From Bacteroidales bacterium (lineage in GTDB: Bacteria; Bacteroidota; Bacteroidia; Bacteroidales; GCA-2748055), in the NCBI GenBank assembly GCA_040880545.1, contig JBBDIE010000099.1, positions 15,944 through 79,943 of the forward strand: DNA of 64,000 nt. The letters are read 5' to 3'. Shown here piece after piece: positions 23,853 through 33,878 of the stretch (position 1 is the stretch's first letter; the number at the start of each line of letters is the position of its first letter). The position numbers and the translations under genes are program-made. A model generated the notes under the pieces. The model searched no databases. It was not told where the DNA came from and worked only from the letters and a program-made list of their open reading frames with translations.

Positions 23853-23873
23853 CTGGTTAACACCGACAGGAAT
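23853..23873. repeat. Degenerate copy of tRNA-Arg 3' end (outermost att-like site)
   Basis: ctggttaacaccgacaggaat aligned to ctggta-gctccaacaggact (the 33.6-kb copy) gives about 15/21 matches, including the ctggt flank. It lies exactly 50 nt upstream of leader copy 1, the same spacing as in unit 2. Confidence 0.45.
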
Positions 23874-23923
23874 AATATGCATACTTTTCTTTACAAGTCC
23901 TATATAACAATACAGCTGATATT

Positions 23924-24262
23924 TGATTATCATAGAGTTAGTTATATGAAATTCATTGTGATTTCAATTTCATTTCAAATGTTTACCCATGTTTACCAAA
24001 AATGGAAATTCTTAAAAAAGATTCTCGATGATACCAGTTGAAATCATATTTGTTGGACTAGCAATCCAGGAAGGTTAGTCACCTGTTTAAAAAATTCATC
24101 CAGGAAATTGTGAGATTCGTTTTTTTATTCTAAATTTATATAGCCAACGTGAATTAACTCGTAATCTATTATGCCTAAAACCCTTATCAATCTCAATAAG
24201 TGGAAACCTAATTTGCATCTTTGGAGACATGTACAAGGTACATTTTTCCGAGGGGAGTACTG
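23924..24262 (+). repeat. Conserved ~340-bp non-coding leader, copy 1
   Basis: Bases 23971-24173 are identical base for base to 29278-29480 (203 bp). The flanks (23924-23970 and 24174-24262) are alignable with scattered mismatches. The leader contains GTTTACC x2 (23981, 23991) and ATCCAGGAA x2 (24064, 24098). Confidence 0.9.
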
Positions 24263-24359
24263 AAACTTTCCATAAGCAAAATTCAAAAAAGACTCACCCC
24301 CGACTCTCTCAAAAGCTTCGAGGGTGAGGAAAACCGAAGTTTAATTAAACATTACAAAG

Positions 24360-25265
24360 ATGAAGAAAATAATAATAACATTTGTTCTTTCATTATTACT
24401 AATAAGTTGTTCCAAAAAAGATACTATTGATGTTCCAATTGTTCTTGACCTTGGATTCAACTTCGAATATACTAATGCAATACTTAATTTTTCAACAGTG
24501 GAAGATTATGAATCAGCAATTACCTATATTAATTCGGATCCCTCGCAAATAAACATTTTTAACGGAAAAAATGGATTTGTTTCATTGTATTCCATTTCAG
24601 AAGAAAGTTTCCTTGATGAAAATTGTGATGAAATAATTTCCTCATTATTAAATGAAAATCAGGAAATTATTATTCAAAATGTACAATTCATCTTAGATTT
24701 TAATTCACGAACTGTTACGGCAATTAATTTAAATAGTGAAGAATACCTAAAATCTAACTCCAAAAGTATTTTTAGCTTCGACGATTATGTATTATTTGAA
24801 GTGTTTAGTAAGTCAAATGATGAAAGAGCCTTTAAAAAGGAAATTCTGTTAGATCCATGTCCTGGAAAAGACCAAAAATCTTATCAAACAGTCTTCACAT
24901 ATCATGATATTGAATTACGACAGCAATACTTAAAACTTGGAATATATTATTCATTGACTGCAAAAATTACAAAAGATTTTCCTGAAGATTATTATATGGC
25001 AGTCCAAACATACTGGCAAACATGTTGTTGGCAAAAACTTAATGAAGGAATTGGATCTGCAACGGAATTCGATGAATGTACCGGCACTTTTGATAATGAT
25101 GCAAAAGTAAAACCATATTCAAGTTCGAATAGGTTAGCAAAATTTCACTTGAAGGCAAACTACTATATTTTGGACTCTGAGGATGATCAAGGTAGCACTT
25201 TAGGTGATTGGGATCAATATATGAAGTGTGATTGTCCTACTTGCGATGATCTTCTAGAACTTTAA
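24360..25265 (+). CDS. Hypothetical lipoprotein with Cys-rich C-terminus (unit 1 only)
   Basis: 301 aa with lipobox LLISC-SKKD. The C-terminal region has CCWQK..DECTGTF..MKCDCPTCDD. I recognise no family. Confidence 0.55.
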   Translation: MKKIIITFVLSLLLISCSKKDTIDVPIVLDLGFNFEYTNAILNFSTVEDYESAITYINSDPSQINIFNGKNGFVSLYSISEESFLDENCDEIISSLLNENQEIIIQNVQFILDFNSRTVTAINLNSEEYLKSNSKSIFSFDDYVLFEVFSKSNDERAFKKEILLDPCPGKDQKSYQTVFTYHDIELRQQYLKLGIYYSLTAKITKDFPEDYYMAVQTYWQTCCWQKLNEGIGSATEFDECTGTFDNDAKVKPYSSSNRLAKFHLKANYYILDSEDDQGSTLGDWDQYMKCDCPTCDDLLEL

Positions 25266-25283
25266 TTCCTTAAATTAACTCTT

Positions 25284-25859
25284 ATGAAAAATGTTAGACC
25301 AATACGAATGTATTTACTACTCCTTCTTATGAACATTTATATACTTTTGATAGGTCAGGAGCAACCACCAAGTCTTTTTATTTCTTCAGGTATAACCTAT
25401 TTCTCAGAGTTAGATTTGGCAGGTCCAAATATTTCTTTGGACCTGCAATTTCCAATAAATGATCTTTTTGCGCTAAATGCTGGGATCGAAACTTCTAATG
25501 CCCACTCAATTGATTATATTGGAGGAGAAGAGGGTATATACCTAATTAATTTCAATTCTATCAATAGTAGTATTTCAATTATTCCAATTCATGATAAGAA
25601 CAATTTTGAGGTAAATATTGGGGGATTATTTCATTATACTGGATATAGTCAATTTCTATATAAAGACGTACGTAAATTAGACAATGATCAAATAATACAA
25701 ATAAGGGAATATCTTGCATCTGGTCGAAGGAAGTTTTCATACCAACTATCGGCAAAATACTTTTATTTCAAAGAGAAATATAAATATGGTGTAGAAATCC
25801 AATATATAAACTATGCTCAAATCCTTTCATGTTCTTTTTTATTTGGATTCTCTCTTTAA
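25284..25859 (+). CDS. Small putative outer-membrane beta-barrel protein
   Basis: 191 aa with a hydrophobic N-terminal signal, alternating beta-strand-like segments and a hydrophobic C-terminus (..SFLFGFSL). It occupies the same position as the 29733-30269 gene in unit 2. Confidence 0.45.
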   Translation: MKNVRPIRMYLLLLLMNIYILLIGQEQPPSLFISSGITYFSELDLAGPNISLDLQFPINDLFALNAGIETSNAHSIDYIGGEEGIYLINFNSINSSISIIPIHDKNNFEVNIGGLFHYTGYSQFLYKDVRKLDNDQIIQIREYLASGRRKFSYQLSAKYFYFKEKYKYGVEIQYINYAQILSCSFLFGFSL

Positions 25860-33561: not shown

Positions 33562-33587
33562 CACGGAAATTTTCTTAAAGGAAAATG

Positions 33588-33618
33588 AAAATCCTAACCA
33601 AATGTTGGTTAGGATTTT
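33588..33618 (+). terminator. Hairpin terminator after the unit 2 TBDR
   Basis: aaaatcctaacca (33588-33600) and tggttaggatttt (33606-33618) form a 13-bp perfect stem with a 5-nt loop and a 3' T4. It starts 27 nt after the stop codon. Confidence 0.6.
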
Positions 33619-33631
33619 AGAAATATAACTG

Positions 33632-33648
33632 GTAGCTCCAACAGGACT
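33632..33648. repeat. Direct repeat of tRNA-Arg 3' end (att-like junction between unit 2 and the 154-bp unit)
   Basis: gtagctccaacaggact is identical (17/17) to 33806-33822. Confidence 0.8.
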
Positions 33649-33806
33649 GCCTTTGGCGGACCTGACAATTCCGCGGGTCAAGTCAAATGTCTCCATTTTG
33701 CAAAGGCAAAATAAGGGGATCATTTTTTGTTCGGCAAAGAAATACAAGCATTATTTCCCGAACAAAAAAATGCCCCTGGCCATAAGGCCTGGAGACATCT
33801 GACTTG

Positions 33807-33878
33807 TAGCTCCAACAGGACTCGAACCTGTATCTACGGTTTAGGAAACCGCTATTCTATCCCTTGAACTATGGAGCC
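33807..33878 (-). tRNA. tRNA-Arg (anticodon CCT)
   Basis: The reverse complement reads GGCTCCA-TA-GTTC-AAGGGATA-GAAT-A-GCGGT-TTCCTAA-ACCGT-AGAT-ACAGG-TTCGAGT-CCTGT-TGGAGCT-A. This folds by hand into a 72-nt cloverleaf with a 7-bp acceptor stem (G1-T72 wobble) and a TTCGAGT T-loop. The anticodon loop has CCT at positions 34-36. No CCA is encoded. Confidence 0.85.

Follow-up and report, generated by a model that had tools for sequence, protein, structure and literature searches.

The stretch analyzed here, referred to as the window, comprises 64,000 nucleotides (nt) from an uncultured Bacteroidales bacterium (GenBank assembly GCA_040880545.1, contig JBBDIE010000099.1, positions 15,944 to 79,943 of the forward strand), and all coordinates count from its first nucleotide. 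The subject is an AT-rich island that adjoins the 3' end of a tRNA-Arg(CCT) gene and in which copies of that tRNA end alternate with small groups of genes. A preliminary description of the window, made from its sequence alone, had proposed an array of cassettes that lack an integrase, are mobilized in trans and accrete as integron cassettes do. Here, the island is compared with related loci from metagenomes (labels beginning with L), which were recovered through homologues of two flanking proteins and one 20-mer of the leader, the noncoding segment in front of the genes of each unit.

Genes and repeats at the tRNA-Arg(CCT) locus

A single tRNA-Arg(CCT) was called by both ARAGORN and Rfam. The 20-mer CTTGTAGCTCCAACAGGACT comprises the last 17 nt of this tRNA and 3 nt beyond it, and its copies, termed att copies for attachment site, divide the island in the order att0, unit 1, att1, unit 2, att2, E3, tRNA. 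All genes of the island lie on the plus strand. The features are as follows, with proteins sized in amino acids (aa).

23853-23873, plus: att0, a decayed att copy (about 15/21) that marks the outer boundary of the island
23874-23918, plus: spacer of unit 1
23919-24359, plus: leader of unit 1, conserved to the start codon in L017, L024, L025 and L026
24360-25265, plus: first gene of unit 1, a 301-aa lipoprotein with the lipobox LISC, remote homologue of the first gene of L025
25284-25859, plus: secreted 191-aa protein of unit 1, presumed small beta-barrel (label from position; no family match)
25884-26801, plus: DUF4249 lipoprotein of unit 1 (Pfam, E=1e-20)
26798-29092, plus: TonB-dependent receptor of unit 1, 764 aa, CarbopepD_reg_2/Plug (Pfam)
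29124-29145, no strand: right-end hairpin of unit 1, read from the sequence
29161-29180, plus: att1, a 20/20 match to CTTGTAGCTCCAACAGGACT
29181-29225, plus: spacer of unit 2, about 45-46 nt from att copy to leader
29226-29726, plus: leader of unit 2, with a conserved noncoding part to ~29566 and then a unit-specific 3' part
29727-30269, plus: secreted 180-aa protein of unit 2 with a signal peptide, presumed small outer membrane beta-barrel (label from position; no family match)
30266-31222, plus: DUF4249 lipoprotein of unit 2, putative transporter lid (Pfam, E=1e-23)
31225-33561, plus: TonB-dependent receptor of unit 2, 778 aa, CarbopepD_reg_2/Plug, 72.6% identical to its orthologue in L026
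33588-33618, no strand: right-end hairpin of unit 2, with a 14-bp stem
33629-33648, plus: att2, a 19/20 match to CTTGTAGCTCCAACAGGACT
33649-33802, no strand: E3, a 154-bp unit without genes, GC 0.45, absent from L026, L017 and L022
33803-33822, plus: att copy in the tRNA, the final 17 nt of the tRNA plus 3 nt downstream
33806-33878, minus: tRNA-Arg(CCT), the integration target, with its 3' end at the low coordinate (ARAGORN; Rfam RF00005, 65 bits)

The direct repeats of the tRNA 3' end that the preliminary description had pointed out are real att-type duplications produced by insertion: besides the copy within the tRNA, the island holds one 20/20 and one 19/20 match to the 20-mer, while 100 dinucleotide-preserving shuffles yielded 0 matches. 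The 19/20 copy had been given as 17/17 at 33632-33648, which is correct as far as it goes, but the match is slightly longer. The degenerate outer copy likewise stands. In alignment, att0 is in register with att1, and as both lie exactly 46 nt upstream of a leader, att0 is homologous to the other copies and not a chance match. The spacing from repeat to repeat is 5307, 4468 and 174 bp. In total, the window contains four copies of the core, and L017 and L022 each contain one tRNA copy and one distal copy.

All copies have in common the core (T)GTAGCTCCAMCAGG(A/G), about 15-17 nt, which corresponds to the T-stem and the 3' strand of the acceptor stem of the tRNA and is without dyad symmetry. The distal copies depart from the tRNA sequence at one common point, CAGG(A/G), and continue as (A/C)TAATWTTAC…. 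Just outside the core, the nucleotides vary among copies (CTGG at att0, CTTG at att1, CTGG at att2, and CTTG at the tRNA), and a distinct hairpin lies to the left of each att copy; both features fit successive insertions. Att2 and the hairpin on its left are homologous to the tRNA 3' end and downstream hairpin of L026 and L017. As for integrative mobile elements exploiting Xer and pdif modules, no dif-like 28-bp site (two 11-bp Xer arms with a 6-bp center) was present in the core sequences, which were read directly.

A separate observation concerns the T-stem of tRNA-Arg(CCT), which occurs in two compensated states, A..T in the window and L022 and C..G in L017, L026 and L032. The distal att copy of L022 retains the C state and its own tRNA has the A state, and the distribution of the states disagrees with flank similarity.

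The AT richness of the interval, earlier judged by eye, was borne out by computation. The GC content of the island (23874-33628) is 0.319, compared with 0.436 in the rest of the window, and units 1 and 2 lie at 30-34%. Among 5-kb windows outside the island, the mean is 0.435 (standard deviation [SD] 0.016, minimum 0.402), which places the island about 7 SD lower. The same low-GC contrast, the compositional mark of a genomic island, was found at L017, L022 and L026.

The unit layout of the preliminary description, with a leader, a small outer membrane beta-barrel gene, a DUF4249-like lipoprotein and a TonB-dependent receptor, is as described, and Pfam confirmed the DUF4249 proteins and the receptors with CarbopepD_reg_2 and Plug domains; however, the extra 301-aa lipoprotein of unit 1 had gone unmentioned. 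The beta-barrel label is in keeping with the counterparts of these genes in L026 (PorP_SprF) and L025 (OMP_b-brl_2), but the 191- and 180-aa proteins themselves match no family. All unassigned island proteins carry a signal peptide or a lipobox. Units 1 and 2 each carry an outer membrane uptake operon, consisting of a small secreted protein, a DUF4249 "lid" and a non-SusC transporter, with the lipoprotein as an addition in unit 1.

Between the two units, protein identity is 36% for the receptors and 25% for the DUF4249 proteins, and the small proteins are not alignable (about 0%). With cargo this divergent, simple tandem duplication of one unit was rejected. No relative of the unit 1 receptor above 38% identity was found. 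The right ends of units 1 and 2 are 66% identical over 152 nt. E3 has its own terminator-like hairpin (33772-33788), which adjoins the tRNA, and is without the spacer, leader or hairpin of the family.

The source is a metagenome-assembled genome (MAG), and where two assemblies of the island differ, five of the six discrepancies lie in the repeated leaders; both points would suit an assembly artefact, or chance repeats without biological meaning, as the explanation of the array. This explanation is extremely improbable. Contig JBBDUW010000116.1 of GCA_040903685.1 (L002), which ends exactly at 33822, inside the att repeat, matches the window at 99.86% identity, and Logan contigs from two runs contain this array too, their breaks falling within the repeated leaders. 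Independent assembly of the array from an NCBI MAG and from two Logan runs shows that it is reproducible, and an artefact is effectively refuted; moreover, the repeat statistics exclude chance, and the architecture recurs in other metagenomes. Contigs that end inside the tRNA or the leader also include L028-L031 (at position 1) and L001, L003-L005, L023 and L025 (at their ends). Such breaks at the locus in several samples suggest multicopy repeats or strain heterogeneity.

Related loci and the search for a recombinase

L026 has the same flanks as the window (flank outer membrane protein [OMP] 80% identical in amino acids) and a single unit. Its DUF4249 and receptor genes are orthologous to those of unit 2, with 72% nucleotide identity over 3 kb and 52.8% and 72.6% amino acid identity, respectively. 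The flanking genes of L026 show 70-75% nucleotide identity, similar to the 72% of unit 2, and this flank-like divergence of an orthologous unit indicates vertical inheritance and long residence. What L026 shares with unit 2 is its 3' half, not its first genes. At the other end, the hairpin of L026 is joined straight to the tRNA and the 154 bp of E3 are missing, which makes E3 a clean indel with an att copy on either side.

L017 shares the flanks and the tRNA with the window (left-flank protein 66% identical) and carries different cargo. Its 3.8 kb (GC 0.32) encode a DUF7689 protein with a Por_Secre_tail domain (type IX secretion tail), accompanied by pseudogene fragments, and are followed by a leader 83% identical to that of the window and an adjacent att copy. 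In L022, the tRNA and the distal att copy are 1.75 kb apart. From the tRNA outward, this interval holds a hairpin, an oppositely oriented gene for an AAA_14/DUF4143 ATPase, a leader truncated to its first ~80 nt and the spacer. Over the 120 nt past the att copy, identity to the flank that natively lies downstream of the tRNA in L032 and L035 is 72.5%. The native flank was thus displaced, which is what an integrase-type insertion into the end of a tRNA gene yields.

The tRNA-Arg(CCT) of L032-L041 (flank OMP 62% identical) is without an att repeat or leader and represents an essentially empty site, where ~750 nt with a frameshifted rve-type transposase remnant lie between the tRNA and the next native gene. 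Three further loci combine the leader and att module with other genes, namely, a divergent receptor on the other strand (L023), the 3' end of an OMP_b-brl_3 gene (L024) and a 312-aa lipoprotein 22-24% identical to that of unit 1 (L025).

Taken as a tRNA-integrated island, the locus shows insertion at the tRNA 3' end with a direct repeat at the far boundary, native flank beyond the distal repeat in L022, sites without repeat or leader in L032-L041 and the precise absence of E3 in L026. The earlier claim that the site was used several times is upheld, and the array differs between relatives in unit number and cargo.

Recombinases were searched for with Pfam, the targets being integrase, excisionase, relaxase and transposase domains. 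No such domain was found in any island open reading frame (ORF) of at least 60 aa, nor in six-frame translations of two of the three intergenic regions of the island (23652-24359 and 33562-33805; the third, 29093-29726, was translated without being scanned and contains the unit 2 copy of the leader scanned in the first). These gaps, of 708, 634 and 244 nt, are too small to conceal a recombinase gene. The scanned flank ORFs of at least 143 aa (34.1-63 kb on the right; 21.5-23.7 kb and 130-609 on the left) were negative as well, as were the cargo ORFs of the related loci, so that the units of five to six genomes are recombinase-free. Two ORFs had been candidates for a right-flank integrase and were rejected: 35841-36770 (309 aa, high GC) encodes an AP_endonuc_2 TIM-barrel protein, and 50741-51928 (395 aa) encodes a GH16 enzyme. 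The integrase that tRNA-integrated islands keep next to the att site was thus not found in these scans, and the preliminary description was right that no island ORF of at least 60 aa resembles an integrase, excisionase, relaxase or transposase. Among viral contigs, a profile of the flank OMP found no relatives and no provirus at this tRNA, and a 23-mer of the tRNA 3' half matched only jumbo-phage tRNA arrays, through tRNA-Met, which are irrelevant here.

Invariant loci of native composition, att matches at chance level and a recombinase inside the island, which had been named beforehand as outcomes that would refute the earlier proposal, were all looked for, and none of the three occurred. The locus is probably a tandem array of integrase-less islets that resemble cis-mobilizable elements (CIMEs) and was built by repeated site-specific insertion at the tRNA-Arg(CCT) 3' end. 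As the units lack a recombinase and retain attL and attR, they are CIME-like by structural definition, with both att ends kept and integration and transfer genes absent. The insertions would have used chemistry of the tyrosine-integrase type on the core of ~15-17 nt. Each insertion would have restored the tRNA end and the terminator and moved the previous end and hairpin outward. The array is old, and unit 2 evidently stood beside the tRNA already in the common ancestor with L026. The array now probably evolves mainly by vertical descent, by replacement or decay of cargo and by gene conversion between leaders. E3 is best interpreted as the 154-bp scar of a different, later element at the same site; judging from the stiffness of DNA, it is presumably too small to have integrated as a circle.

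Two side observations concern transposon-related sequences at these loci. The remnant downstream of the tRNA in the empty sites is, in L032 (5000-5420, minus strand), a frameshifted rve/rve_3 (IS3-like) transposase that directly follows tRNA-Arg(CCT). The L026 contig carries an intact 1268-aa ORF (264-4070, minus strand; GC 0.49) with RVT_1, RT_RNaseH and Integrase_H2C2 domains that resembles a Ty3/gypsy-type pol. This ORF abuts and truncates the leader at L026 position 4006, 1.3 kb from the contig end, and is explained either by chimerism in the metagenome assembly or by a genuine retroelement that inserted into a bacterial contig.

The conserved leader

Over 300 nt (23919-24218 versus 29226-29525), the leaders of units 1 and 2 show 94% identity and include 203 nt of 100% identity (23971-24173 and 29278-29480). 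In contrast, identity between the units drops to 75% in the 59 nt on the left side of this patch and to 48% in the att copy and spacer, and the att-proximal leader of unit 2 is closer to that of L017 (78-85%) than to that of unit 1. Because the repeat-proximal parts are just 48-75% identical, the near-identity of the leaders is a gene conversion patch. On the evidence of these alignments, it is the product of intragenomic conversion between old paralogues and not a sign of recently arrived copies of one backbone. Relative to L002, five of the six island differences lie in the two leaders (at 24043, 24060, 24202, 29409 and 29456). Their clustering is consistent with gene conversion, and they stem from either repeat collapse in assembly or ongoing conversion.

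The leader is ~450 nt long and 76-92% conserved between genomes whose other intergenic DNA does not align. Conservation of its 3' half extends as far as the first gene's start codon in unit 1, L017, L024, L025 and L026, and this half contains a 13-bp hairpin (~24221-24251) with two compensatory pairs and almost no broken pairs. Given this conservation to the start codon and the covarying hairpin, the 3' half behaves as a promoter and 5' untranslated region (UTR). Transcription is predicted to start just downstream of TAAATTTAT, which occurs in the two leaders at ~24132-24140 and ~29439-29447. Most likely, the leader provides a promoter and a structured 5' UTR, and it is possibly a new cis-regulatory element, a candidate for operons of a TonB-dependent transporter and its lid.

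The att-proximal part of the leader contains an invariant 21-mer (TGATTATCATAGAGTTAGTTA), a conserved inverted repeat (~23923-23966) with a compensatory change in unit 1 and ATGTTTACC repeated in tandem, phased at 10 nt. At the opposite end of the units, additional ATGTTTACC sites are absent, and the window-wide count is not above chance; "arm sites" at that end were therefore rejected. Two further interpretations of the leader were discarded. A structured RNA along its full length does not agree with minimum free energies relative to shuffled sequence (z scores of +1.0 and +0.6 for the two strands), which leaves local hairpins only, and a coding function does not agree with the lack of a conserved ORF.

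An Rfam search of 23000-34500 (E≤1) returned only the tRNA and a chance snoRNA match, leaving the leader without a family. The leader 19-mer ATGTTTACCCATGTTTACC had only chance matches of ~20-26 nt in 185k species-representative genomes, among which the window's own species was not recovered, and in viral contigs. Two further leader 20-mers had no matches in viral contigs, and the leader and att region together had no match in plasmid and phage collections by distant blastn. The leader was found only at the tRNA-Arg locus, in one narrow clade of Bacteroidales.

The leader bears directly on whether the units are dedicated recombinase-less cassettes, with hairpin, core, spacer and leader serving as attP, that a tRNA-Arg-specific integrase acting in trans, from the chromosome or an integrative and conjugative element (ICE), excises, inserts and stacks. 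The att-spacer-leader module lies beside every distal att copy whatever the cargo and is kept even where truncated (L022), and the tandem ATGTTTACC repeat and inverted repeat look, as sequence motifs, like protein-binding sites. Unit number and cargo vary between relatives, and no unit in five to six genomes has a recombinase. The absence of integrase relics, the survival of the att-proximal leader through cargo replacement, the low GC content in all lineages and the many metagenome assemblies that break at the tRNA or leader keep mobilization in trans alive, although as an unlikely alternative. However, L026 has an orthologue of unit 2 that has diverged about as much as the flanks, the two leaders of the window owe their identity to a conversion patch, and the 3' half of the leader acts like a 5' UTR that reaches the start codon. 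The leader is also confined to one locus in one narrow clade, with no occurrence in the 185k genomes (one 19-mer), plasmids or phages, and additional ATGTTTACC sites are missing from the other unit end. Among the assemblies compared, no structural variant within a population (circular junction or empty site) and no partner integrase were seen. Of the earlier proposal of mobilization in trans, the lack of a recombinase in any unit thus stands, but orthology of unit 2 with L026 at 72% nucleotide identity and the absence of a circular or empty-site variant do not support it.

A bolder form of the same idea, a Bacteroidales "tRNA-integron in reverse," would have recombinase-free cassettes whose sole defining trait is the ~500-bp module of terminator hairpin, tRNA-Arg core, spacer and leader, and would make this module both attP and a portable promoter and regulatory 5' UTR. 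It is likewise doubtful. Such a module could let outer membrane uptake operons and other surface protein genes shuffle and stack at tRNA-Arg(CCT). If true, mobilization in trans would be a new mode of cassette accretion, one without a recombinase borne by either the cassettes or a platform.

Gene conversion between the leaders, which is demonstrated, also suits a hypervariable surface protein locus driven by homologous recombination. Here, one ancient insertion, the source of the att copy and leader, would have been followed by cargo swaps and unequal crossing-over without any later site-specific recombinase, anchored by the leader on one side and by the hairpin and tRNA on the other. The units are indeed mosaic, as L026 shares the 3' half of unit 2 and not the first genes; ~70 nt spanning the hairpin and the tRNA end are homologous between all unit ends and the native site; and divergence is extremely fast in the cargo proteins but not in the leader. 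Nevertheless, the boundaries of E3 coincide exactly with the 19-20-nt core, E3 is without a leader or family hairpin, every distal copy ends at CAGG(A/G) as a crossover site predicts, and the L022 insertion displaced the native flank in the fashion of an integrase. Moreover, the att copy and spacer of units 1 and 2, at 48% identity, are too diverged for a recent unequal crossover. We consider this explanation improbable.

Repeated site-specific insertion of CIME-like islets, which we prefer, has difficulties of its own. No native tRNA flank corresponds to the sequence on the outer side of att0, and the first insertion is thus not reconstructable in the window. The right ends of the units (hairpin and ~50 nt) resemble the native tRNA-downstream flank of species with an empty site, which blurs the boundary between element end and native flank. 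The att-proximal leader was retained in L017 and L022 despite replacement of the cargo, for which a pure promoter role is insufficient. Low GC content persists in all lineages despite apparently long residence. Finally, simple decay from ICEs or integrative and mobilizable elements (IMEs) should have left some remnant somewhere, but no relic of an integrase, excisionase or mobilization gene was seen in any unit of any genome scanned.

Known systems, cargo and neighboring features

CIMEs lie between attL and attR, are devoid of genes for integration and transfer and accrete in tandem at tRNA genes; they were defined in the ICESt1/ICESt3 family of Streptococcus (Pavlovic 2004, Bellanger 2011, reviewed in PMC5704250). 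The units described here likewise lie between repeats of a tRNA 3' end, lack integration and transfer genes and stand in tandem at one tRNA, and the composition of the array differs between strains or species. Unlike CIMEs, the units contain no remnant of ICE or IME genes, so that derivation by deletion from such an element is conjectural, with E3 as a possible deletion scar, and no coresident ICE with the same att site was seen at the loci examined. The array further differs in its Bacteroidales host and in the ~450-nt noncoding leader at the distal att copy of every unit.

Tycheposons build tRNA-adjacent islands in Prochlorococcus that are subdivided by partial tRNA copies (bioRxiv 10.1101/2020.12.28.424599). 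Newer insertions displacing older ones outward, degenerate remnants and nutrient uptake cargo are common to those islands and the present array. However, tycheposons carry their own tyrosine recombinase and a replication module, of which neither genes nor fragments occur here, and they belong to a different phylum. NBU1 and NBU2 are mobilizable elements of Bacteroides, about 10 kb in size, that insert at the 3' ends of tRNA-Leu and tRNA-Ser, respectively, through an identical core of ~13-20 bp and encode IntN, a mobilization protein and oriT. They share the Bacteroidota host and tRNA 3' end with the array, but the genes for IntN and the mobilization protein are absent here.

Like integron cassettes, the units are recombinase-less groups of genes gathered at one site, the newest possibly nearest the attachment site. 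The integron-like accretion proposed earlier nonetheless failed, as no intI, attI, Pc or attC hairpins are present; the units are operons of 4-5 kb that bring their own leader or promoter, and the att site is a tRNA end. No Phage_integrase match occurred among the scanned ORFs of the window, and the unit boundaries are the tRNA 3'-end core and not attC palindromes. Nor can the array count as an uncharacterized class, given that tandem integrase-less, att-flanked elements at tRNA genes had already been described as CIMEs (PMC5704250) and in tycheposon islands (bioRxiv 10.1101/2020.12.28.424599). The array is a known kind of structure, and the well-conserved noncoding leader is its only feature out of the ordinary.

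If the preferred account of CIME-like islets holds, a tRNA hot spot in uncultured Bacteroidales gathers and turns over small uptake operons, and islets of the CIME type, att-flanked and integrase-less, are not confined to the Firmicutes, the group in which they were defined. The locus is also a natural set of att site variants, usable in seeking the cognate integrase, and the leader, with its covariation-supported hairpin and no Rfam family, may have lasting use as a cis-regulatory candidate.

DUF4249 has been proposed as a transporter lid, with cofitness support for BT2172/BT2173, a non-SusC TonB-dependent system (bioRxiv 10.1101/2023.03.17.533168). As in BT2172/BT2173, a DUF4249 lipoprotein and a CarbopepD_reg/Plug transporter are encoded side by side on the same strand; unlike BT2172/BT2173, the module here lies within an AT-rich islet between tRNA-derived repeats. 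Pfam also identified DUF4249 and Plug receptor modules in L015, L016 and L026, those of L015 and L016 being native chromosomal forms of the three-gene module. Outside the clade, the unit 2 receptor has its closest homologues in P0001 and P0003 (59-60% identity), which were considered as mobile copies and rejected, as they belong to chromosomal three-gene modules (PorP_SprF-like, DUF4249, receptor) of native GC content without a tRNA or leader.

Beyond the tRNA, a perfect 16-bp palindrome (GGGTGTAGAGACATGGCATGCCATGTCTCTACATCC) at 34101-34136 spans the first-listed ATG (34113) of the OMP ORF. Homologues of this OMP are about 191 aa long, which suggests a start downstream of 34113. The left anchor of the locus is a pair of minus-strand genes (22121-23651; 294/284 aa and 182 aa) that match no Pfam or NCBIfam family and are conserved in L017 and L018 at 66-76% amino acid identity. 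Farther left, 1-21475 is a flank of the polysaccharide utilization type which, according to the L002 gene table, contains several very large minus-strand ORFs, a Fasciclin domain protein and a 1401-aa hybrid two-component regulator with Y_Y_Y, HisKA, Response_reg and HTH_AraC domains.

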